From NCBI GenBank assembly GCA_964642155.1, contig CAZXNT010000003.1:64899-128898 (forward strand): a stretch of 64,000 bases of DNA, read 5' to 3'. The notes below the pieces were generated by a model. The model made no database searches, was not told the DNA's origin, and saw nothing but the letters and a program-made list of their open reading frames with translations. Each line of letters begins with the position of its first letter. Positions within the stretch are counted from its first letter, which is position 1. Source of the stretch: an uncultured Candidatus Saccharibacteria bacterium. Lineage in GTDB: Bacteria; Patescibacteriota; Minisyncoccia; UBA6257; UBA9933. A program made the translations under genes and the position numbers. Below, in pieces: positions 2,204 through 37,821 of the stretch.

Positions 2204-2776
2204 TTATTTTACTATAACTTCCTTCCCGTTCCACTCAAATCCAGATAAAAAAATATTCACTCGCGCTTGCGCCCTGATATCTTTTATTTTCTCGTCAAAA
2301 TCTATTCCCGCCAAAAACAATCTATTCTCCAAAATTTCTTTTTTCGCCTGCGGTTTTAAAACTCTCTCTTTAAATTCACTAAGTGAAAAACTATATAAAG
2401 TTTCAACCGCCTTATCGGCAATCTGGTTTTCCGAAATTTCGCTTATTTTTTTTTCAACCAACGCATTTAAGTCGTTTTGTTTGATCTCTTTTTTTAATTC
2501 TCGGTCAATTAAAATATCTTCAATTAAATTATCGAGCACCGCGCGTTTTATTTCTCGCCTGGCTTCATCGGCTTTAAGAACTTGTGAATCTTGCGCGTAT
2601 GTTTCAAGAGCTTTTTCGTAATAATTTAAGGAAGTTGAATAATTCCTATTATAATCATTGACCATAATGGGACTGATACCGACAAGCGCAATGGGATAAA
2701 CACCGAATAAAATTAAAATAACAATAATTCCAGTCGCCGATGCCGAAAAAATAATAAGCTTTTTTTTATTTATCAT
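2204..2776 (-). CDS. membrane-anchored SurA-N-domain-like protein (hypothetical)
   Basis: N-terminal TM helix then helical domain. Start moved to MINKKK to avoid the 90-nt overlap with lepA. Confidence 0.4.
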   Translation of the reverse strand: MINKKKLIIFSASATGIIVILILFGVYPIALVGISPIMVNDYNRNYSTSLNYYEKALETYAQDSQVLKADEARREIKRAVLDNLIEDILIDRELKKEIKQNDLNALVEKKISEISENQIADKAVETLYSFSLSEFKERVLKPQAKKEILENRLFLAGIDFDEKIKDIRAQARVNIFLSGFEWNGKEVIVK

Positions 2777-4554
2777 TTTATTATTTTTTTGAACACTTCC
2801 GCCGATATCCTCACCTGCGCCATGCTCAATAATTTCTTTTTCCCTTTTTTCTGCTTTTTCCATAATTTCATTTTACGCGTTCTATCGCCACCGTAAAGAT
2901 ACCCCGTAACGTCTTTTTTCATTGCGGACATGGTTTCCCGAGCGACAATTCTGCCGCCAGCCACCGCCTGAATTGCCTGACTAAACTGCTGACGCGGTAA
3001 AACATCTTTCAATTTTTCCACCATTTTACGCGCTTCATATTCAAGTTTTTTGCGCGGCACCACGCGTACCAACCCGGCAACCGACGCGTTAGCGACTAAA
3101 ATTTCCATTTTTTCAAGCTCAGCTTTTTGATAATCCGTCAATTCATAATTGAAAGAAGCGAATCCTTCGGAAACAGATTTCAACCGGTCATCAAAATCTG
3201 AAATAAGCTCAGCCAAGGGCATTTTAGCGGTTATTAAAATTATTCCTTCGGTCCCCAAATTATTCGTCGCTATATTTTCCATTCTGAAAATTTCTTTCAA
3301 TTGCAAAATTCCTCCGAGGTGTTCGCTTGGTGAAATAATTTCCAAATTTATCATCGGCTCTAAAATTTCCTTAATGTCATCCGGCAAATCCGCTGGATTA
3401 TCTATTATTAAATTATTAACTTTATAAGCGACTGACGGAAAACTGTTTATTGTTTTTATATCAAATTCTTTTTCCAAACGTTCAGCGGTAATTTCAAAAT
3501 GAAGCTTACCCAAGAAACCGACTTTAAATCCACGCCCAAGTACCTCATTAAAATCCGCTTCAAATTTTAAAGACGAATCATTTAGTTTCAACCGGCCAAA
3601 CGCTTTTTTCAAATCGTCGTATTGGTTACTTTCTTCGGGATAAAAAGAAACAAACACAACCGGCTTCGGTTCGTCATAGCCTGGCAAAGCCAAGTTCGCA
3701 AACTCACGCTGACTCAACGCAGAATTACGCAGAATGGTATCGCCAATTTTAATGTGACTTGGGTCTTTCAAGCCGGTGGCGATATAGCCGATTTCACCGA
3801 CTGATAATTTACCAATCGGCTTTAATTGCGGTAAAAAATATCCGATTTCTTTCATTTTAAATTTTTCATCGGCAGCTATTAAATACGCTTCTTCATTAAC
3901 ATTAAATTCTCCGTTAAAAACACGAATGGAAGCAATAATACCTTTGTGGTCGTCGTAAAATGAATCAAAAATGAGAGCGCGGGACGCGCTTGATAAATTT
4001 TCATTAAGATTTGGAATTTTTTCTATAATTTTTTTTAAAAGTTCTTCCACGCCTTTGCCGGTTTTAGCGGATATTTTATGAATTTCTTCCGGCTCACAGC
4101 CGATTAAATCCGCCAAATCTTTTATTCTTCTGCTTAATTGCTCTTCGCCGCTTATTAAATCAACCTTATTAATAGCGCCGATAATTTTAAGTCCGGATTT
4201 TTTAGCAGCATAAAATTTTGCCAAAGTTTGCGCTTGAATTCCCTGCGTTATATCAACAAGCAAAATCGCGCCTTCAACAGCCGCCAATGCCCGCGATACT
4301 TCGTAAGAAAAATCAGAATGCCCGGGCGTATCAATCATATTTAGAATATAATTTCCATAAATCATCCGTACCGGCGCCATTTTAATAGTGATTCCCCTTT
4401 CCCGTTCCGATTCCAAAGAATCCAAAAACTGCTCCTTCATTTGCCGGCTGTCAACGGTTTTGGTAATTTCCAAAAACCTGTCCGCCAAAGTTGATTTGCC
4501 GTGGTCAATATGACTGATTATCACGAAATTTCGGATATTTACAGCATTATTCAT
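2773..4554 (-). CDS. lepA: elongation factor 4 (LepA)
   Basis: GTPase G1 motif HIDHGKST, LepA-specific C-terminus, 593 aa. Confidence 0.9.
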   Translation of the reverse strand: MNNAVNIRNFVIISHIDHGKSTLADRFLEITKTVDSRQMKEQFLDSLESERERGITIKMAPVRMIYGNYILNMIDTPGHSDFSYEVSRALAAVEGAILLVDITQGIQAQTLAKFYAAKKSGLKIIGAINKVDLISGEEQLSRRIKDLADLIGCEPEEIHKISAKTGKGVEELLKKIIEKIPNLNENLSSASRALIFDSFYDDHKGIIASIRVFNGEFNVNEEAYLIAADEKFKMKEIGYFLPQLKPIGKLSVGEIGYIATGLKDPSHIKIGDTILRNSALSQREFANLALPGYDEPKPVVFVSFYPEESNQYDDLKKAFGRLKLNDSSLKFEADFNEVLGRGFKVGFLGKLHFEITAERLEKEFDIKTINSFPSVAYKVNNLIIDNPADLPDDIKEILEPMINLEIISPSEHLGGILQLKEIFRMENIATNNLGTEGIILITAKMPLAELISDFDDRLKSVSEGFASFNYELTDYQKAELEKMEILVANASVAGLVRVVPRKKLEYEARKMVEKLKDVLPRQQFSQAIQAVAGGRIVARETMSAMKKDVTGYLYGGDRTRKMKLWKKQKKGKKKLLSMAQVRISAEVFKKIIK

Positions 4555-4575: not shown

Positions 4576-5358
4576 ATGAACAAAAAACTAATTGTTTTTA
4601 ACTGGAAAAGTAATCCTGCCACTGTTGGCGCGGCAATAAAATTGACAAAAGCAGTTGAAAACAATATTCCTCAAAAAAACGCGCTGGAAATCGTTATCGC
4701 CCCGCCGTTTCTTTTTATGGAAGAAATTGAGAAGTTAGTTAAAAAAGCGAAATTGGGAAGCCAAGATGTATTTTGGTCCGCCAGTGGGCGGACGCCAGCC
4801 GGCAAAGGCCCGTATACCGGAGAAATTTCGCCGAAAATGCTGAAAAATTTGGGAGTTGAATATGTTATTATCGGCCATTCCGAACGCCGCCGAATTTTGG
4901 GCGAGACTGACGAAATGATAAATAAAAAAGTTTTGGCGGCTTTGAAAACCGGCTTAAAAGTAATTCTCTGTGTTGGAGAAAATTTAATAATTCGCAAACG
5001 CGGGAAAAAAACAATTAAAAATTTCATTAAAAACCAACTAAAAAAAGATTTAAAAAATTCTAAATTCTTAATTCTGAATTCTAAATTACGCAATCACTTA
5101 GTGATTGCGTATGAGCCTGTCTGGGCAATCGGCACCGGACATAACGACACTCCCAAAGATGCAGTAGAAATAATAAAATTCATCAAGCAAAATCTACAAT
5201 CTACAATCTATAATCTACAAACTAAAGTATTATACGGCGGTTCGGTAGATGGTAAAAACATTAAAAATTTTGTAAAATATAAAGAGATTGACGGATTTTT
5301 AATCGGTGGTGCAAGCTTAAAACCGAAAGAAATAAAAAATATAATTAAATCAATATGA
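4576..5358 (+). CDS. tpiA: triosephosphate isomerase (with internal heptamer-repeat insertion)
   Basis: NWK...GHSERR...AYEPVWAIGTG...GGASLK motifs. Confidence 0.85.
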   Translation: MNKKLIVFNWKSNPATVGAAIKLTKAVENNIPQKNALEIVIAPPFLFMEEIEKLVKKAKLGSQDVFWSASGRTPAGKGPYTGEISPKMLKNLGVEYVIIGHSERRRILGETDEMINKKVLAALKTGLKVILCVGENLIIRKRGKKTIKNFIKNQLKKDLKNSKFLILNSKLRNHLVIAYEPVWAIGTGHNDTPKDAVEIIKFIKQNLQSTIYNLQTKVLYGGSVDGKNIKNFVKYKEIDGFLIGGASLKPKEIKNIIKSI

Positions 5359-6114: not shown

Positions 6115-6621
6115 ATGGACATTCAATCAAATTCCTTAAAAAAACAAGTTGGGAAGTTCGCGATTGTCGGAGTTATAAATACGCTTATTGATATTGCCAT
6201 ACTCAACAGTTTGGTATTTTTAGGATTTACCGTCGCCTTAATGGTTGTCGGGCAAAAATTTTTAATCGCGAATATTATTTCCGTCGTCATTGCTATGATA
6301 AACAGCTTTATCTTAAATAAACAATGGACTTTCAAGACCGAAGAAGGAAATATTTACAAGCAAATTTTCCAATTTTTAGCCATTACGATTATCGGCATGT
6401 TTGTAATCCATCAAATAATTTTCAACGCGCTTTATTACGGCTTGCCGTCAATTTCAAATTTTATTGTTTCAATCGTCCACTTCTTAAAACTTAGCGGTAT
6501 TTTTTCAGATTCTTTTATAGCGCTTAATTTTGCAAAAATTATCGCCATCATCGGCTCTTTAATTTGGAATTTTATCGGATATAAATTTATTGTTTTTAAG
6601 AAAAAAGAGTTGACTTTTTAA
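6115..6621 (+). CDS. GtrA-family membrane protein
   Basis: Four TM segments, FAIVGVINTLID N-terminus typical of GtrA-like proteins. Confidence 0.65.
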   Translation: MDIQSNSLKKQVGKFAIVGVINTLIDIAILNSLVFLGFTVALMVVGQKFLIANIISVVIAMINSFILNKQWTFKTEEGNIYKQIFQFLAITIIGMFVIHQIIFNALYYGLPSISNFIVSIVHFLKLSGIFSDSFIALNFAKIIAIIGSLIWNFIGYKFIVFKKKELTF

Positions 6622-13800: not shown

Positions 13801-13929
13801 TTTTGTATAAAAAATTAAAAAAAATACCCCGTTAGAAATAATACCTCTTTGTTCTACGGCGAGGTTACATTTTAGAATAATTCTGGCGGGGTCTAATGCC
13901 CCGCTGGAATTTCTAACGGGGTTTACTTT

Positions 13930-14454: not shown

Positions 14455-14496
14455 AATAGAATATTAAGATAAAACATTAATAAGATTTTAAAACAT

Positions 14497-14534
14497 CCTT
14501 GCTCTTGCTATCTTATAGGATAGCAAGAGCAAGG
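14497..14534. promoter_or_regulatory. 38-bp palindrome CCTTGCTCTTGCTATC-N-GATAGCAAGAGCAAGG
   Basis: 16-bp perfect arms, in promoter region of TrpR-like gene. Confidence 0.5.
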
Positions 14535-14614
14535 AAAAAAGCAAACAAAATAGACAAGGAATAGTAAGAAGAATGATAGAAGAGCAAGAAGAAAAAGAAT
14601 AAAGAGGATATATT

Positions 14615-14640
14615 CCTTGCTATCCTGTAGGATAGCAAGG
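14615..14640. promoter_or_regulatory. palindrome CCTTGCTATCCT-gt-AGGATAGCAAGG
   Basis: 12-bp perfect arms, upstream of TrpR-like gene. Confidence 0.5.
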
Positions 14641-14903
14641 AAAAGAATAGGTGGAATACTTAAACAGATTAATAGAAAAACGGAAATATAAAAAAATCAC
14701 TCTAAAATGGCTAAAAGAAATTGATTTGGGCAACGAAAAAATAAAAAAGTTAACTCTGGAATAAATTATTGACTTACGAAGTCAATAAGATTGGGGTAAT
14801 TATTTATTTTCTAACGCTTCAATTCTTGATTTTAATTCTTTGATCTCAGTGTCTTTTTCCGCTTTGAGTTCTTTAATTGTCAACCATTGTCCCTATTTAT
14901 TTT

Positions 14904-15629
14904 TTATTTTCCTAGTTTATAAACCCTTGAATAGAGTGTTGTTGTGCCGTCATGATAACATCTATAATTTTCTCCTTTTCTAACAACCGCCGTACATCCA
15001 GCTTGATTGACTGCCGGTAGAGCATTTTGTGAATATACAGATATTCCACCCGCCTCACACAGTATATAAGTCAATGTTCCGCCAACGCCATTACACATAA
15101 AAATTAAGTCTGTATCTGCTAGATAGTAAGTAGTATTAGTCATACCTGTTGTTGGCACTCTCAAAATTGAAACTGTCCCCACAACATCAAGAGTTGCATC
15201 CGGCGTTGGCGTCCCAATGCCGACGTAGCCATTGCTCCCGTCTATAACTAAATAATTTGCTCCCGTAAAATTACCAATTTCAAATTTTCCTGCTCCAATA
15301 GCATTCCCTGACCCAGACGACATTAAACTAAAAGTTCTCGCCCCAACTCCTCCTCCAGTAAGATTTAAAATTCCGCCGGCAGTTCCTGTATTAGTGATAC
15401 GCGCAAGAGTATTAAGAGAAAAAGGATTATTATTTGATGCCACGATATCTAAGGAAACTTGAGGTGTTGATGTCCCGATGCCGACGTTGCCGTTGTAATA
15501 ATATAAAGCGCCGCCGCCGGAAGGAGGGTTGGCGGTAGGATTGGTCCAAGCATTAACCAAAACAGCAATTAAAAGACCGACTATTATTGAAGTTAAAATT
15601 GGAAATAAAATTTTTTGTTTATTTTTCAT
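14904..15629 (-). CDS. secreted Gly-rich repeat protein (GxVGIGTxTP...LDVVG repeats)
   Basis: N-terminal signal anchor, two GNVGIGTSTPQVSLDIV-type repeats. First gene of pilus locus. Confidence 0.5.
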   Translation of the reverse strand: MKNKQKILFPILTSIIVGLLIAVLVNAWTNPTANPPSGGGALYYYNGNVGIGTSTPQVSLDIVASNNNPFSLNTLARITNTGTAGGILNLTGGGVGARTFSLMSSGSGNAIGAGKFEIGNFTGANYLVIDGSNGYVGIGTPTPDATLDVVGTVSILRVPTTGMTNTTYYLADTDLIFMCNGVGGTLTYILCEAGGISVYSQNALPAVNQAGCTAVVRKGENYRCYHDGTTTLYSRVYKLGK

Positions 15630-16822: not shown

Positions 16823-17261
16823 TTGTGTTAACGATTATTGTTTTGGAAATTGACGCGTCTCTTTTAAGGGAAATTATAATAGTGGTTGACGCGTTCGGCA
16901 AACCGCTGACCGGAGCGAAAATAACGTCTTTGCTGTTTCCGGATGTTGGGTCGGAAAATTGAATAGTCGGCCTAAACGAATTTTTAGAGATTATCGTTCC
17001 AGTGGCATAAGTCGTTCCGGAAAATAAATCGTAAAATCCGCCGCTGGAAACTGAATTTTCAAAATGAATGCCATAATGGCTGCTTGATTCCTGCGAGATT
17101 GACCTATCCTGCGCGTTTCTTAAAATTATCGTAATTTCCCGCGCCGTTAAATCAAGGTCTTGCGTTCCGCGATAACCGAAAAGATTTAAAAAAGAAACCG
17201 TGGATACAACTGCAATAATGCCGATAGTTATTAATAATTCTATAAGTGTAAAGGCTCTCAT
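16803..17261 (-). CDS. type IV pilus pseudopilin/minor pilin
   Basis: MRAFTLIELLITIGIIAVV prepilin N-terminal domain. Confidence 0.7.
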   Translation of the reverse strand: MRAFTLIELLITIGIIAVVSTVSFLNLFGYRGTQDLDLTAREITIILRNAQDRSISQESSSHYGIHFENSVSSGGFYDLFSGTTYATGTIISKNSFRPTIQFSDPTSGNSKDVIFAPVSGLPNASTTIIISLKRDASISKTIIVNTNGQIQY

Positions 17262-17262
17262 T

Positions 17263-18474
17263 TTAGAATTGTCCTACTAACTGATATATCGGCACGATGA
17301 CCGCCAAAGCGATGGTGCCGATGATAAGTCCGATAACCAAAAGCAAAATCGGCTCCAAGAATGAAACCATTGATTTTATCGCGGTCTCTATCTCCGAAGT
17401 GTAAAAATCAGCCAAGGTCGTTAAAATGCTTTCCATATGGCCGGCCTTTTCAGAAATTGACATCAGATTAACCACCACTCTCGGGAAAGTCGGCTCTTTG
17501 CGAAAAGCTTCGCCGATGGTCAAACCTTTGGAAATTCCTTCCCGCGCTATTCTGCGTAAGCTTGTTTTTAATTCTTCATTTCCGACGGCATCAGCGGTGA
17601 TTTCCAGAGAATCAAGGATCGGCAATCCCGAAGAAAGTAATGCCGAAAATGTTGAAGCAAACCGCTGTAAGGCTATTTTTTTAAGAACTCCTCCGACAAT
17701 CGGCGTTTTTGCGATAAATCTTGAAAAAAGTTTTATTCCGATAATAGACTTTGTTATAAAAAACCAAGCGCCAACTAAAAGAATAATTATAAAAACCAAA
17801 ATAAACAAAAAATATTTTCCCATAAAAAGGCCGATTGCAAAAACGATTTTTGAAAATAACGGCGGCTCAAAACCTCCGGACGTAAAAATGTTGGCGATTT
17901 TTGGAAGCGCGAAACTCACCAAGAGGAAAAGAATCGCGGCCGAAGCGGTTAAAAGAATAATTGGATAAGTAATCGCCGCTTTAATCTGCCGTCTTAAATC
18001 CTGCTCTTTTTGCAAGGCAATGCTTAATTGATTAAAAACAAGTTCCAAATTTCCGGAAGTTTCTCCGGCTTTAATCATATTTATAAAAACCGAGGAGAAA
18101 AATCTCGGATACCTGACAAACACGGAATGAAAGGGCTGTCCCTTTTCCAGTGAAGTCCTGATTTCCATCAATAAAGCTTTAAGCGCCGGCTTTTCAAAAT
18201 CAGCGATTAAAATATCAATCGCCCTTAAAAGGTCAGTGCCGACTCTTAGCATTAAAGCCAGATACTTAGTGAGAAAAACCTTGTCTTCAACGTCAATTGA
18301 CTGGCTAAAAATTTTAAACCGGCCGGTTTTTGAAAGTTCTTTCGGCGCTTTTAATGAAATCGGCCTTAATCCCTGGCTGGCGAGAAACCCCAAAACTTCA
18401 GCCACACTTTCAGCTTCATGGTCGCCTTCAATTATTTTCCCATTGGATTGTGATGCAATATAATGAAACCTCAT
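17263..18474 (-). CDS. pilC: type IV pilus assembly platform protein PilC (GspF family)
   Basis: Two GspF repeats, 403 aa, three TM segments. Confidence 0.85.
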   Translation of the reverse strand: MRFHYIASQSNGKIIEGDHEAESVAEVLGFLASQGLRPISLKAPKELSKTGRFKIFSQSIDVEDKVFLTKYLALMLRVGTDLLRAIDILIADFEKPALKALLMEIRTSLEKGQPFHSVFVRYPRFFSSVFINMIKAGETSGNLELVFNQLSIALQKEQDLRRQIKAAITYPIILLTASAAILFLLVSFALPKIANIFTSGGFEPPLFSKIVFAIGLFMGKYFLFILVFIIILLVGAWFFITKSIIGIKLFSRFIAKTPIVGGVLKKIALQRFASTFSALLSSGLPILDSLEITADAVGNEELKTSLRRIAREGISKGLTIGEAFRKEPTFPRVVVNLMSISEKAGHMESILTTLADFYTSEIETAIKSMVSFLEPILLLVIGLIIGTIALAVIVPIYQLVGQF

Positions 18475-18640
18475 CCCTCACCCTTCAAAGATTTTAATTT
18501 TCATTTAAAAAATGAAAAATATTAATTCTTTGAATTTTTATTTTTATTTGAATTTTTATCCACTTACTCTTCAACCCCTCACCCTTTAATTTTAAAGGGT
18601 GAGGGGTTATTTTTTCAAAATATCTTTGAAGGGTGAGGGA
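18474..18640. repeat. IR-bounded element (19-bp perfect terminal inverted repeats TCCCTCACCCTTCAAAGAT) with internal 32-bp perfect palindrome
   Basis: Left IR 18474-18492, right IR 18622-18640 (exact reverse complement). Central CCCCTCACCCTTTAA|TTAAAGGGTGAGGGG 18575-18606. Fills the entire pilB-pilC gap. Confidence 0.6.
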
Positions 18641-20350
18641 TTATTCTCGTATTACACGAAACACTTCTTCTATCGTTGTCATTCCCAATTCGGATTTTCT
18701 CAATCCATCTTCAAACATCGTAATCATCCCTTTATTTTTCGCCAATTTTATCAAATTGTCCAAAGAAAAATTAGGATTAATAATTTCCTTACGGCTATCT
18801 TCATTAATATTTAAAATTTCAAAAATTCCTATTCTACTATAATAACCCGTATTACCGCAACTCATACATCCCTTACCTTGATATAAAATTTTCGGCGCCC
18901 TAAATTCAAATTCAAGATTTAATTCTTTTAATTGTTTTTTAATGGAATTTAACAAATCTTCCGACGGCACAAATGAACTAATACAATCCAAACAAATTTT
19001 TCTAACCAAACGCTGAGCAACAATCATATTTAAAACAGCGGCGGTTAAAAATTGCGGAATTTTCATATCAATCAAACGCGGAATCGCGGTTGCCGCGTCA
19101 TTAGTGTGCAAGCTGGATAAAACCAAATGGCCGGTTAAAGCTGAATGCACAGCAATTTCAGCGGTTTCTTCATCACGAATTTCTCCGACCATAATAATAT
19201 TCGGGTCTTGCCGAAGTATTGAACGCAATCCGCTTTCAAAAGTGATTCCCGCCAAAGGATTAATTTGAATCTGATTGATATATTTCATATTGTATTCAAT
19301 CGGGTCTTCAATGGTCACTATATTCACTTCCGGCCTGTTTAAAATGTTTAAAATGGCGTAAAGCGTGGTGGTTTTTCCGCTGCCGGTCGGTCCAGTTACA
19401 AGAATCATTCCGTAAGTTTTTTTAATATTTTCTTCAACGATTTTAACCATATCATCCATCAACCCGACTTCTCTTAAAGAAAGCGGTTTTTGGGCCGCGG
19501 GCAAAAGCCTCATTTCTATCTTTTCGCCGTAAAAAGTCGGAATAATGGAAATCCTGATATCAACTAAATCCGAACCGACTTTATAATGAGTTCTACCATC
19601 TTGTGGCCTCTGATGTTCGTCTATTTTTAAAGCCGCGAGCAGTTTAATCCTTGCCACAATCGCCGGATGAACTTCTTTCGGAATTTTGGTTATTTCATGA
19701 AGAACGCCGTCAATCCTGAATCTCATTAAAATTCCGTCTTCAAAAATTTCCATATGAATATCCGAAGCGCGCAAAGAAAAAGCATAAAAAAGAATATTAT
19801 CAATAAGGGCGACGATGGGAATCGCCGAGGCCGCTTCTTCAACTGTGCCGGCCTTTTGCCTCAATGACGCCTGAATATTTTCTTCAACTATTTTTTTAAA
19901 ATTTTCCGCAAAACGGCGGCTATACATCGCAAATCCTTTGTTTAAATCGTCTTGAGTCGCAAGATACGGCTTGATATTAGCTTTTAAATTATTTCTCAAA
20001 AATTCCACCGTTCCCAAATCACTCGGATCTTCCATGGCAACGCTAATGCTCCCATTGGACTCCTTGTCAAAAACAATAACCATTTTTTGCTTGGCTAAAT
20101 TTTCAGCAAGAAGATTAAGAATTCCTTCGTCTATTTTTCTGCCGATTAAATTGGCTTTCTGAACATTAAAATAATCCGCTATAACATCATAAAAATAATC
20201 TGTTGTGATAATATTGCGCGAAATCAAAATATCGCCGATATTCTGGTCCATATGCTTCGCCTCGCTTACCAAAAAGTCAAAATTTTCCTCAGTTATCAAA
20301 CTATCTTTAATTAAAATCTCTTTTAATTTTTTATCGGGAATTTTAAGCAT
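18641..20350 (-). CDS. pilB: type IV pilus assembly ATPase PilB (GspE family)
   Basis: Walker A GPTGSGKTTT, Asp box, His box, tetracysteine motif CLDC...CMSC, 569 aa. Confidence 0.9.
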   Translation of the reverse strand: MLKIPDKKLKEILIKDSLITEENFDFLVSEAKHMDQNIGDILISRNIITTDYFYDVIADYFNVQKANLIGRKIDEGILNLLAENLAKQKMVIVFDKESNGSISVAMEDPSDLGTVEFLRNNLKANIKPYLATQDDLNKGFAMYSRRFAENFKKIVEENIQASLRQKAGTVEEAASAIPIVALIDNILFYAFSLRASDIHMEIFEDGILMRFRIDGVLHEITKIPKEVHPAIVARIKLLAALKIDEHQRPQDGRTHYKVGSDLVDIRISIIPTFYGEKIEMRLLPAAQKPLSLREVGLMDDMVKIVEENIKKTYGMILVTGPTGSGKTTTLYAILNILNRPEVNIVTIEDPIEYNMKYINQIQINPLAGITFESGLRSILRQDPNIIMVGEIRDEETAEIAVHSALTGHLVLSSLHTNDAATAIPRLIDMKIPQFLTAAVLNMIVAQRLVRKICLDCISSFVPSEDLLNSIKKQLKELNLEFEFRAPKILYQGKGCMSCGNTGYYSRIGIFEILNINEDSRKEIINPNFSLDNLIKLAKNKGMITMFEDGLRKSELGMTTIEEVFRVIRE

Positions 20351-21726: not shown

Positions 21727-22396
21727 TTGTGTTTATGTTTAACCGTTTATTGATGACTATTTGTTGAATAACCGAAAAAATAGACGTTGTCAACCAATAA
21801 AGTCCAACGGCCGAAGGCAAATAACTTAAAAACATCACCGTTAAAACCGGACCGAAAAAAACCATTTGCCTTCCCATTTTTTCCATCGGCGACAATTCTC
21901 CGCCGTCCTTGACTGTTTTCGGCAAAGCCAATTTTCCCTGAAAATACTGCGCCAAAGCCGCCAAAACAACAATAACCAAACTACGACTGTTCAAATCAAT
22001 AAAACCGAGAAAATAATGATTTAAAACTCCATTACCGTTTATGCCCTTAAGAAAAACCCAATAAAGAGCGATTAAAACCGGCAATTGAATGATAATAATC
22101 AGAAACTGAGAAAGAGGATTCACTTTATGTTCGCGATAAAGTTCCATCATCACCTGCGCTTGTTTGGCGCGGTCGTCTTTATAGTCTTTTTGAATTTCTT
22201 TTATTTTAGGCGCCAAACGCTGCATAATCGCCTGGTCTTTAGCGCCCTTATAAAACAACGGCAATAAAATAATTCTAATCGCAATTGTTAAAACAATAAT
22301 GGCAACGCCCAAATCATGGCCGGGAATATTTTCGTATAAAAAAATCAAGGCGCTTAATAATGGATTATATAAATATGTGTTAAAAAGTGATGACAT
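21713..22396 (-). CDS. yidC: membrane protein insertase YidC (short form)
   Basis: Five TM, 227 aa. Conserved rpmH-rnpA-yidC-jag synteny. Confidence 0.85.
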   Translation of the reverse strand: MSSLFNTYLYNPLLSALIFLYENIPGHDLGVAIIVLTIAIRIILLPLFYKGAKDQAIMQRLAPKIKEIQKDYKDDRAKQAQVMMELYREHKVNPLSQFLIIIIQLPVLIALYWVFLKGINGNGVLNHYFLGFIDLNSRSLVIVVLAALAQYFQGKLALPKTVKDGGELSPMEKMGRQMVFFGPVLTVMFLSYLPSAVGLYWLTTSIFSVIQQIVINKRLNINTNGKN

Positions 22397-22843: not shown

Positions 22844-22920
22844 TTTTAAAATATATCAAAACAAACAATAAAAAACAATACCCGCAAATGCGGGTATTGT
22901 TTTTTTCTAATTTCTAAACT

Positions 22921-23324: not shown

Positions 23325-23407
23325 TCCCTCACCCTTCAAAGATATTTTAAAAAATAATTACTTATTATTCAAGTATCTATGTCTTTCTATTTTTGAAGGG
23401 TGAGGGA
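23325..23407. repeat. second copy of TCCCTCACCCTTCAAAGAT inverted-repeat element
   Basis: Left IR 23325-23343 perfect, right IR 23389-23407 (1 mismatch), 45-nt spacer. Confidence 0.55.
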
Positions 23408-25114: not shown

Positions 25115-25468
25115 TTATTTAATAAAATTTTTAATAATTTCATTAGCGCCGACGGAAATTAAAGCCACGGCAATGGAGATAGCGGCATAAATAATTTTGT
25201 GATTTGCACTTTTAATTTTTTCCGGGTCATCGCCGCCGGTTAAATAACTGAATGCCGCCAAAATAACAAATCCAATTGCCACTATAAAAAATGCTGTGTA
25301 AAGAACATTAACAATTTTTGTTAAAATATTCATTACATCGTTTATGCCTGTTACTGGACAATCTACGCTTGTATTACCAGGACATGGTTTAGCAAAACCA
25401 ACAGCCGGGAAAATAATTATTAAATAAAAAATTGTTAAAAATAATAAAATTTTTGAGAATTTATTCAT
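25115..25468 (-). CDS. T4SS-pilin-like protein (paralog 4)
   Basis: YLTGGDDPEKIKSA core. Confidence 0.5.
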   Translation of the reverse strand: MNKFSKILLFLTIFYLIIIFPAVGFAKPCPGNTSVDCPVTGINDVMNILTKIVNVLYTAFFIVAIGFVILAAFSYLTGGDDPEKIKSANHKIIYAAISIAVALISVGANEIIKNFIK

Positions 25469-25941
25469 TTTTTTGTTGAGATAAACGCATCCGACTTATT
25501 GGTTATTATTTCTCCCATTATATAAATAACTCCCCAAGAACACAAGACAATAATATAACCCACCACCGCCCAAAGAATGACATCCTTGCCGGATTTCACT
25601 TTTTCCGGACTGTCGCCCGCGGTCAAAATAAGAAAACCGCCGTAAATCACCATAATCGCCAAAATCGGCGCGCCAATTTTAATAAGATAACCGATAATGT
25701 TTTGGATAATGGTGAAAATTGTTTTACCGGCGAAGGGGTCTTGGAGGTTACCATTAGATGATCCTCCTTGAGCATAAGGTGAACCCTGACCAAGGGGCAA
25801 TGGACCAATAAAATTAGCATCGCCTGGCTGCGGCGCTGCCATTACAATATCATTATTAATGACAAAAAATAAACCACCAAAAGAAATAATAAATATTATA
25901 ATCAAATATAAAAACTTATTTCTGAAAAATAATTTAATCAT
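25465..25941 (-). CDS. T4SS-pilin-like protein (paralog 5, divergent)
   Basis: LTAGDSPEKVKSG core, 2 TM. Confidence 0.45.
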   Translation of the reverse strand: MIKLFFRNKFLYLIIIFIISFGGLFFVINNDIVMAAPQPGDANFIGPLPLGQGSPYAQGGSSNGNLQDPFAGKTIFTIIQNIIGYLIKIGAPILAIMVIYGGFLILTAGDSPEKVKSGKDVILWAVVGYIIVLCSWGVIYIMGEIITNKSDAFISTKK

Positions 25942-27903: not shown

Positions 27904-27929
27904 TCCTGCTCTCCCTGGGGAGAGCAGGA
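27904..27929. promoter_or_regulatory. palindrome TCCTGCTCTCC-ctgg-GGAGAGCAGGA
   Basis: 11-bp perfect arms. Confidence 0.5.
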
Positions 27930-28083
27930 TAAAAAAGACATAAGAAAAAATAAGAACATAAAAATATAAGGGGAAAATAAAAAAAAGAAATGAAAGGGGG
28001 GAATAAAATAAAGGAAATAAAATAAAGAATAAAATAAAAAAGATAAAAATAAAAAATGAAGAAAGTGAAAAATAAAAATAAAT

Positions 28084-28109
28084 TTCCTGCTCTCCCCATG
28101 GAGAGCAGA
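28084..28109. promoter_or_regulatory. palindrome TCCTGCTCTCC-ccat-GGAGAGCAGaA
   Basis: One mismatch. Confidence 0.45.
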
Positions 28110-28217: not shown

Positions 28218-28745
28218 ATGATTAATTTATTTATGAAACATCTTTCTTCTGAAAATTCCATAAAACAACTCCCAGAATTTAAATCAAGAAAAGAATGGCA
28301 AGAATACATTTGGCAAGAATTTATAAAAAAACTTTACAAAGCAAAATCGGCAAAACAAACGCAAGAATATCTGGAAAGTTTTTTAAGCGCGAGAGAGCGA
28401 GATTTAATTATTAAACGAATAATTGCCACTGCCTTAATCAGCCAAGGTAAAAAATACAGAGAAATAGGAGAAATTTTATGGCTATCCCATAACACAATTA
28501 GCGCCATTAAAAAGGGTCTTTTAAAAAAGACTATTTATCACGGATATAAATATTATCGCGTTCAAAAATTAAAAAACGGCCCTGATAATAAAAATTCACT
28601 TAAAATAACGATTGATAATTTAGGAGAGGCGACTTTGGATTTTGTAAATTGGCTTTCTCGATTACCGATTTCACCGGCAGCGATTAAATATGGAAAACTC
28701 TTTAATTCATATGAGCAAGATAAGGCAAAATATAGTAAAAAATAA
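28218..28745 (+). CDS. TrpR/YerC-like HTH regulator (paralog 2)
   Basis: SRKEWQEYIWQEF... and HTH EIGEILWLSHNTISAIKKG. Paralog of 13930..14454. Confidence 0.55.
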   Translation: MINLFMKHLSSENSIKQLPEFKSRKEWQEYIWQEFIKKLYKAKSAKQTQEYLESFLSARERDLIIKRIIATALISQGKKYREIGEILWLSHNTISAIKKGLLKKTIYHGYKYYRVQKLKNGPDNKNSLKITIDNLGEATLDFVNWLSRLPISPAAIKYGKLFNSYEQDKAKYSKK

Positions 28746-37744: not shown

Positions 37745-37821
37745 GCGCCTGTAGCTCAGCTGGTTAGAGCATCGAGCTTATACCTCGAGGGTCCTTGGTT
37801 CGAGTCCAAGCAGGCGCACCA
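37745..37821 (+). tRNA. tRNA-Ile (anticodon UAU)
   Basis: Acceptor GCGCCTG/CAGGCGC, anticodon stem TCGAG/CTCGA, loop CTTATAC, T-arm CTTGG-TTCGAGT-CCAAG, encoded CCA. Confidence 0.8.

Follow-up and report, generated by a model that had tools for sequence, protein, structure and literature searches.

Why should the gap between two pilus genes of an uncultured Candidatus Saccharibacteria bacterium be filled, from stop codon to start codon, by one inverted-repeat structure, and does this structure serve the pilus or does it move? The genes lie in contig CAZXNT010000003.1 (assembly GCA_964642155.1), of which we analyzed a stretch of 64,000 nucleotides, called the window from here on. A pilB-type ATPase gene (18641–20350, minus strand; list of open reading frames, ORFs, translation, and Pfam T2SSE, E = 8e-118) and a pilC-type platform protein gene (17263–18474, minus strand; ORF list and Pfam T2SSF, E = 1e-49) are separated here by a spacer element of 166 nt. 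On the mRNA strand the sequence reads pilB-TAA-T-CCCTCACCC...GGGTGAGGG-ATG-pilC. We consider this spacer to be one copy of a genome-wide repeated element resembling a miniature inverted-repeat transposable element (MITE), rather than a control region specific to the pilus. The reading we favor, to which we give a probability of about 0.6, is that of a MITE-like element residing in operon junctions, with arms that would act as a ribosome-binding site and its complement and would form a coupling stem.

Geometry of the pilB-pilC Spacer

An earlier, sequence-only reading of this stretch had claimed that 19-bp perfect inverted repeats exactly fill the pilB-pilC gap, and both the sequence and a repeat finder confirm it: the 19-nt TCCCTCACCCTTCAAAGAT lies at 18474–18492 and its exact reverse complement at 18622–18640. 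The pilC ATG has its A at 18474, and on the mRNA strand the pilB stop codon (TAA, 18641–18643, abutting the element) is followed at once by 18640, so that the repeat fills the gap exactly. When one mismatch is allowed the inverted repeat grows to 23 nt (18473–18495 and 18619–18641, 96%). The pattern is beyond chance. The window holds CCCTCACCC seven times against 0.12 expected, and the 18-mer of the arm, with up to three mismatches, four times against 0.05 expected, while the sense-strand fold of this copy has a free energy (dG) of –73.9 kcal/mol (z = –9.5) with a closing stem of 20 bp. Nor is the element an assembly artefact: independent short-read assemblies with identical pilB or pilC reproduce both of its ends, so the sequence is real, and their contigs break inside it, as expected of a repeat in an assembly graph. 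The ORF list contains no ORF inside the 166 nt.

A Family That Fills Gene Junctions

Counting further copies, as the sequence-only reading had suggested, brought up one more in the window and 53 distinct ones across genomes. The second window copy, 83 nt long, was found by arm match and repeat finder at 23325–23407 (plus strand), between two T4SS-pilin-like genes (Pfam), and it is the only family member in the 64 kb apart from the one at pilB-pilC. It lacks a 3' hairpin, abuts no start or stop codon, and has its interior antisense to the flanking genes; an exact-protein look-up for the gene beside it returned no record.

A scan with the 18-mer arm over one genome per prokaryotic species (596 Gb) gave 65 loci, mostly in metagenome-assembled genomes (MAGs) of Patescibacteria. 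Some 17 chance matches are estimated for an 18-mer in 596 Gb, which fits the lone matches seen in unrelated taxa; in the Patescibacteria MAGs the 18-mer comes in inverted pairs, 95–174 nt apart. Named hosts are Jorgensenbacteria, Wolfebacteria, Liptonbacteria, Brennerbacteria, Harrisonbacteria, Paceibacterota, and several MAGs labelled Saccharibacteria, Jorgensenbacteria and Brennerbacteria being different candidate phyla within the Parcubacteria group (NCBI). The set of 53 distinct copies was defined by at most three mismatches per arm, and its members are 81–174 nt long. Among the contigs fetched, those of MAG SRP118108_co5_4 carry at least 17 copies, and Jorgensenbacteria GW2011_GWA1_48_11 has at least 11.

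Exact filling from stop to start is the rule of this family. An ATG stands immediately 3' of GGGTGAGGG in 50 of the 53 copies, and in 46 of these 50 a stop codon, usually in the form TAA-T, lies 1–2 nt before CCCTCACCC and mostly terminates a long ORF. Such flanking gene pairs as rpsM-rpsK (two MAGs), rpsK-rpsD, ftsE-ftsX, and ssb-rpsR, together with a junction downstream of tpiA, are unrelated to one another, hence the family is not pilus-specific. This family-wide filling and the Shine-Dalgarno (SD)-like character of the start-proximal arm (see below) go beyond the sequence-only reading.

Presence, Absence, and Target Duplication

The pilB-pilC junction was compared in 75 metagenomic relatives of PilC. 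One of them with 97% amino-acid identity (L070) has only TAA-GATT-ATG at the junction; another (L066, 95%) has a family member there with an interior 63% identical to that of the window copy; and in two more (L067 and L068, 93%) the junction is occupied by a 195-nt inverted-repeat insert of unrelated sequence. Farther relatives mostly show a TAATG overlap or spacers of 0–7 nt, and others hold further inverted-repeat inserts. The interior closest to that of the window copy is found at a different junction in another MAG (L017_6198, 78%; L034 reaches 70%), and the last ~85 nt of the window copy and L017_6198 are ~95% identical as judged by eye from the alignment. Within a single MAG, the interiors of two copies from different junctions show 95% identity.

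A filled and an empty site could be matched directly. The filled one, in MAG H52-bin056 (L050, 7331–7474), reads GTG-TTTAT-element-A-TTTAT-ATTCAACCG; the empty one is in the window (21733–21737), just upstream of the ATG (21726–21724) of an R3H-domain gene, and reads GTG-TTTAT-GTTTAACCG. Their flanks align without gaps at 89% identity, and the pair confirms a 5-bp target duplication (TTTAT). Comparable duplications appear in about 8–10 copies, where ATGAA, ATGAG, or ATAAA precedes T-CCC...GGG and the same 5-mer follows it, a pattern of ATRAR. A second filled and empty pair is formed by L040 (filled) and L058 (empty). A single duplication rule for all copies was rejected, as the 2-bp (AT) and 5-bp (ATRAR) models each account for only part of them. 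In another MAG a solo stop-proximal arm, TAA-T-CCCTCACCCTTCAAAGAT-AG-ATG (L041, 5893–5915), is all that separates a stop codon from the start of a PilC-like gene, which suggests a remnant of internal deletion.

One arm pair 2.7 kb apart (L052) was considered as an autonomous element and discarded, since it consists of two small copies, each complete in itself, with ordinary genes (tpiA among them) next to them; in the arm-containing loci, arm pairs spaced by more than 300 nt never have a transposase between them. Viral contigs gave 0 arm matches, and an nhmmer search over 144 loci yielded truncated copies only. Terminal inverted repeats, small size, absence of coding capacity, dispersed copies, and presence/absence polymorphism at orthologous sites are all found in this family, and its reading as a MITE-like mobile element is supported. 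The sequence-only reading had already likened the arrangement to a MITE, and the copies in the window and in related genomes, the presence or absence at the junction, and the 5-bp duplication of the filled and empty pair speak for it. Clearly, other copies exist and relatives do not conserve the sequence as an ordinary spacer, their junctions showing instead TAA-GATT-ATG, another subfamily member, an unrelated insert, or TAATG and 0–7 nt.

Gene junctions in the window lineage are a general landing zone for small elements, as follows from the other junction insertions in close relatives. Between pilC and the next gene, L066 has an insertion of ~500 nt (3862–4361, corresponding to window 17252–17267) flanked by GCTGAAAAG and CTTTTCAGC repeats, which encodes a 116-aa four-helix-bundle protein of the 23S_rRNA_IVP type (Pfam E = 5e-41). 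An AT-rich inverted-repeat insert family (AATTTTCAATT... and ...AAATTGAAAATT) occurs at two junctions (L067 4214–4357 and L070 242–389) at which the window has 1–6 nt. The window itself contains, at about 13824–13924, a different inverted-repeat element with CCCCGTTAGAAAT arms, a GC-rich hairpin beside one arm, and a minus-strand T-run after it. Members of the same CCCGTTAGARAT-arm family fill pilB-pilC in L078 and L090, where they end in ...AACGGG directly before the ATG and show an ATGAA-like duplication; this may be a sister family sharing the same machinery. Two more intergenic inverted-repeat pairs, at 14495–14648 (ATCCTTGCTCTTGCTATC...) and 27906–28108 (CTGCTCTCCCTGGGGAGAGCAGGA, 24 nt, 96%), possibly represent further small element families.

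Anatomy and Folding

Along the mRNA strand, the window copy begins past the pilB TAA with the stop-proximal arm, T-CCCTCACCCTTCAAAGAT (18622–18640, minus strand), which is the complement of the SD-like arm and recurs unchanged in dozens of copies elsewhere, in other genomes. A 13-nt linker, ATTTTGAAAAAAT (18609–18621, minus strand), was delimited by direct comparison with the second window copy, since linker and arm make up a 33-nt stretch common to both with 1 mismatch. Then comes an inner palindrome (18573–18608) whose 17-nt perfect arms (18573–18589 and 18592–18608; repeat finder) carry the arm-like motif CCCTCACCCTTTAA and enclose a non-palindromic TT. The sequence-only reading had placed here a 32-bp perfect palindrome (18575–18606) followed by a T-run; there is indeed a palindrome, longer than described but not perfect, and the T-run exists at 18610–18615 but trails it on the plus strand only, antisense to pilB and pilC. 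This palindrome is an optional module, absent in alignments from the closest copies (L034 and L017_6198). Next is an AT-rich interior (18522–18572, minus strand) including TTGAAGAGTAAGTGGATAAAAAT, which in the alignments also occurs in subfamily members from other junctions. A hairpin (18495–18521, minus strand; repeat finder) stands 2 nt upstream of the start-proximal arm, its position being family-wide and its sequence subfamily-specific. The start-proximal arm itself, ATCTTTGAAGGGTGAGGG-A (18474–18492, minus strand), contains the SD-like GGGTGA (18483–18478), then GGG, then ATG (18474–18472).

To compare interiors, each copy was oriented by its downstream gene, and once so oriented the interiors can be aligned within subfamilies. 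In 49 of 53 copies the interior is closer to its nearest relative in gene orientation than reversed, which shows that the internal polarity is fixed with respect to the gene that follows. The common plan runs from the stop-proximal arm through an AT-rich variable stretch to a hairpin of 5–16 bp placed 0–5 nt before the start-proximal arm, that arm, and the ATG; the variable stretch sometimes opens with an extra arm-like hairpin, of which the inner palindrome of the window copy is an example. The arms are almost invariant over their 18–20 nt. Of 51 copies, 44 have the start-proximal hairpin (at least 5 bp, ending at most 5 nt from the arm), whose sequence differs fully by subfamily: CGCTTC/GAAGCG, GTCGC/GCGAC, TTGTAAATTT/AAATTTACAA, or the arm-like CCCTCAC/GTGAGGG. 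Mean dG over the last 40 interior nt is –8.2 kcal/mol, compared to –3.4 for shuffled sequence and –3.0 over the first 40. The two arms are mutually paired in the minimum-energy fold of 51 out of 53 copies.

Translation Signals and a Candidate Coupling Stem

The window has a G+C content of 36.6% and few SD sequences. Canonical ones (AGGAGG 6–8 nt before the ATG) precede about 5–6 genes, and imply a standard CCUCC anti-SD. The 16S rRNA ends in GAUCACCUCCUU, whose UCACCU can pair with GGGUGA, and GGGUGA with its 3-nt GGG spacer stands in the same register as GGAGG ~6 nt before the AUG. Many genes of the window have instead a TATAAT-like hexamer ending ~6–9 nt before the ATG (e.g., 2773–4554, 4576–5358, 6115–6621, 14904–15629, 25465–25941, and 28218–28745), a pattern that suggests widespread leaderless mRNAs. 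A leaderless pilC start was considered and rejected, because the arm carries GAAGGG where those genes have TATAAT.

We infer that one transcript spans pilB, the element, and pilC. The predicted fold of the mRNA leaves no base of the start-proximal arm unpaired: GGGUGAGGGAU pairs with AUCCCUCACCC directly past the UAA, and the downstream SD and start codon are masked. The arms would thus form a 20-bp stem bringing stop and start codons side by side, at whose base the U and A of the pilC AUG would have as pairing partners the last A of the pilB UAA and the U after it. The SD-like GGGUGA, 3 nt before the AUG, would be provided by the start-proximal arm and masked by the stop-proximal one. On termination at the pilB UAA, a ribosome would cover and open up the stem over its outer ~9 bp, exposing SD and AUG, while the inner ~10 bp (CUUCAAAGAU/AUCUUUGAAG) would keep the start site tethered beside the stop codon. 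In this way pilC could be translated in step with pilB across 166 nt, as in the relatives with a TAATG overlap, and the element probably keeps pilC translation coupled to that of pilB. It would then be selfish DNA, nearly neutral inside operons, and no dedicated regulator of the pilus.

Several points weigh against this coupling model and the mobile history behind it. The CCCGTTAGARAT-arm sister family also abuts the ATG (...GGG then ATG) and has no SD-like sequence, and adjacency to the ATG may stem from target choice (ATGAA-like sites) rather than from a function in translation. Substitutions in the arms have no sense-strand G-U bias (~14 compatible with the sense strand and 12 with the antisense, counted from the alignment), and the interiors fold equally well on both strands (24 copies favoring sense and 28 antisense); these two results give no sign of selection at the RNA level, and the conservation of the arms could reflect transposase binding alone, RNA function, or both. 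Most of the 63 crudely called genes of the window lack an SD. The majority class, TAA-T...ATG, has no duplication beyond a palindromic AT that is indistinguishable from the repeat itself, and no single simple insertion links the filled and empty states either at pilB-pilC or in L040/L058. An autonomous element with these arms was not found among the arm-containing loci. Co-transcription, the stem in vivo, and translational coupling are all inferred.

Alternative Explanations

The main rival to coupling is that the element provides a portable RNase III site, an explanation we consider unlikely on the present analysis, though the strongest of the alternatives. The 20-bp arm stem would be cut, separating the pilB and pilC cistrons, with the upstream fragment stabilized by the hairpin and the downstream SD freed; intercistronic sites of phage T7 are processed by RNase III in this manner. 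The length of the stem, perfect in the window copy, the pairing of the arms in 51 of 53 copies, and the location inside operons, where processing would matter, all agree with it, and Correia elements give a documented case of RNase III cutting at the inverted repeats of a MITE (PMC10969869). Such cleavage would not require that the element abut both codons to the nucleotide or that the arm resemble an SD, and it is compatible with coupling, so that the two could act together. Rather less probable still is a purely selfish MITE that leaves expression unaffected, in which the arms are kept for transposase binding only, the ATG adjacency comes from an ATRAR target (e.g., ATGAA) that is most frequent at start codons, and the stop adjacency from later deletion of the spacer in these compact genomes. 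The duplication of ATGAA, ATGAG, or ATAAA in about 8–10 copies, with an empty site confirming 5 bp, would be expected from it, as would a sister family that ends in ...GGG before the ATG with no SD-like arm, the lack of sense-strand bias in arm substitutions and fold energy, and the decay by deletion seen in the solo arm at pilB-pilC of another MAG. However, a 20-bp stem that covers the start signals (SD and AUG) of genes such as rpsK or rpsD would hardly be without effect if transcribed; the polarity match of 49 out of 53 copies is unexpected for a transposon with symmetric arms inserting at random; and erosion of spacers to zero is not the usual state in this genome, where 29 of the 47 gaps between same-strand genes measure at least 15 nt.

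The sequence-only reading had also offered an attenuator or terminator that would set the pilB:pilC ratio by means of the central palindrome and T-run, and this proposal we regard as very improbable. The inner palindrome followed by TTTTTT does score as a terminator, and alternative pairings among the four CCCTCACCC/GGGTGAGGG motifs are conceivable. Nevertheless, the terminator scan gave a hairpin with T-run on the plus strand only (18573–18608, then ATTTTTT) and none on the minus strand within the element, which puts the hairpin with its T-run on the strand antisense to both genes. The palindrome is moreover missing from the closest copies, the element is missing or replaced at pilB-pilC in close relatives, and the family is present in many unrelated operons. 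The sequence-only reading is therefore supported in part, in its mobile element and not in its attenuator.

Further classes were examined and set aside. Sigma-70-like promoter motifs lying within the element on the minus strand (TTGAAA-N18-TAAAAT and TTTTCA-N16-TAAAAT) are of a kind commonplace in this AT-rich DNA (37 found vs. 24 expected) and are not conserved between subfamilies. The core consensus of an integron attC site is RYYYAAC ... GTTRRRY, bounding an imperfect palindrome behind a cassette ORF; the arms contain neither GTTRRRY nor RYYYAAC, and the flanking genes are housekeeping operon genes rather than cassettes. A REP/BIME unit, a riboswitch, a CRISPR repeat, and translational bypass were likewise rejected, there being no clustering and no spacers, and the flanking ORFs being complete, separate genes with unchanged termini. 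Rfam 15 at its gathering threshold recognizes four tRNAs only in the window, and a relaxed search matches generic hairpins over the element far below threshold (e.g., RybB, 23.9 bits vs. 40).

Relation to Known Elements

The Correia elements (NEMIS or CREE) of Neisseria are similar in being ~100–160 bp long, non-coding, bounded by terminal inverted repeats, numerous, adjacent to genes, and co-transcribed. They duplicate TA and have a 26-bp repeat consensus. Their sequence and host phylum are unrelated to those of the present family, which has CCCTCACCCTTCAAAGAT arms, Patescibacteria hosts, and a 5-bp duplication where one is visible, and neither an exact bridge from stop to start nor SD/anti-SD arms are, to our knowledge, on record for Correia elements. 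According to PMC10969869, their inverted-repeat mRNA stem is a substrate of RNase III, and they carry promoters and an IHF site.

ERIC/IRU, RUP, BOX, and SPRITE elements of enterobacteria and pneumococci are also small, repeated, hairpin-forming, and intergenic. As parts of operon transcripts they can affect how stable the mRNA is; an exact codon-to-codon placement is unreported for them in the review (PMC10969869). Their consensus differs from that of our family, no Rfam family reaches threshold over the element, and no sequence similarity to them was detected. REP/BIME sequences with RAYT transposases resemble it as repeated palindromic units in operon intergenic regions, often just past stop codons; however, REPs are single imperfect palindromes of 20–40 nt in clusters, whereas here two arms enclose 60–140 nt with fixed polarity, and no RAYT-like gene was seen near the element. 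Insertion sequences of the IS1380 family have ends beginning with CC and target duplications of 4–5 bp, often AT-rich. The resemblance to arms beginning with CCC and to the 5-bp ATRAR duplication may hint at a link, and the fetched loci contain neither a transposase gene nor a full-length element with these arms.

Masking of a downstream SD and AUG by a stem that upstream translation opens is well known from the RNA phages MS2 and Qbeta and from many Escherichia coli operons. Those are single, vertically inherited structures, whereas here the putative masking stem consists of the terminal repeats of a repeated and apparently mobile element. For Qbeta, an example of a masked downstream ribosome-binding site is described in PMC2978339. 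The 2024 review of the functions of prokaryotic MITEs lists promoters, IHF sites, RNase cleavage, gene inactivation, small RNAs, and terminators (PMC10969869). Its section on gene expression has no arms acting as ribosome-binding site and mask, and a search of the paper for the terms "stop codon," "start codon," and "ribosome binding" gave no match. The full-text literature, searched also with the arm sequence, yielded no published description of the element. The family is not a Correia, ERIC, REP, attC, or Rfam member, and it has the structure by which MITEs are defined.

Other Features of the Window

Downstream of a 115-aa pilin-like gene there is a perfect palindrome of 17+17 nt (AAAAAACAATACCCGCA / TGCGGGTATTGTTTTTT, 22870–22905) with A/T runs on both sides, which resembles a terminator acting in both directions. 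At 37745–37821 ARAGORN identified a tRNA-Ile whose anticodon is TAT (UAU), an isoacceptor uncommon in bacteria.

Implications

The repeat has practical consequences, as it fragments short-read assemblies, here between pilB and pilC, and spacers of this kind should not be annotated as gene-specific regulators. Bacteria of the Candidate Phyla Radiation (CPR) are uncultured and their expression signals are poorly known; the dozens of stop-start junctions occupied by this family are natural replicates for the study of initiation, coupling, and mRNA processing in metatranscriptomes. It is tempting to go further and to see here a new superfamily of CPR mobile elements whose terminal repeats evolved as a ribosome-binding site and its mask, the folded mRNA looping the element out and setting stop against start, although we advance this tentatively and think it more doubtful than the coupling stem itself. 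Such a structural bypass, if true, would let selfish DNA enter even ribosomal-protein operons without breaking coupling, and would explain why identical arms are found across MAGs of different candidate phyla. If the coupling stem is real, a mobile element would survive in the tight operons of very small genomes by means of its own translational repair kit, and this would be a new route to harmlessness.

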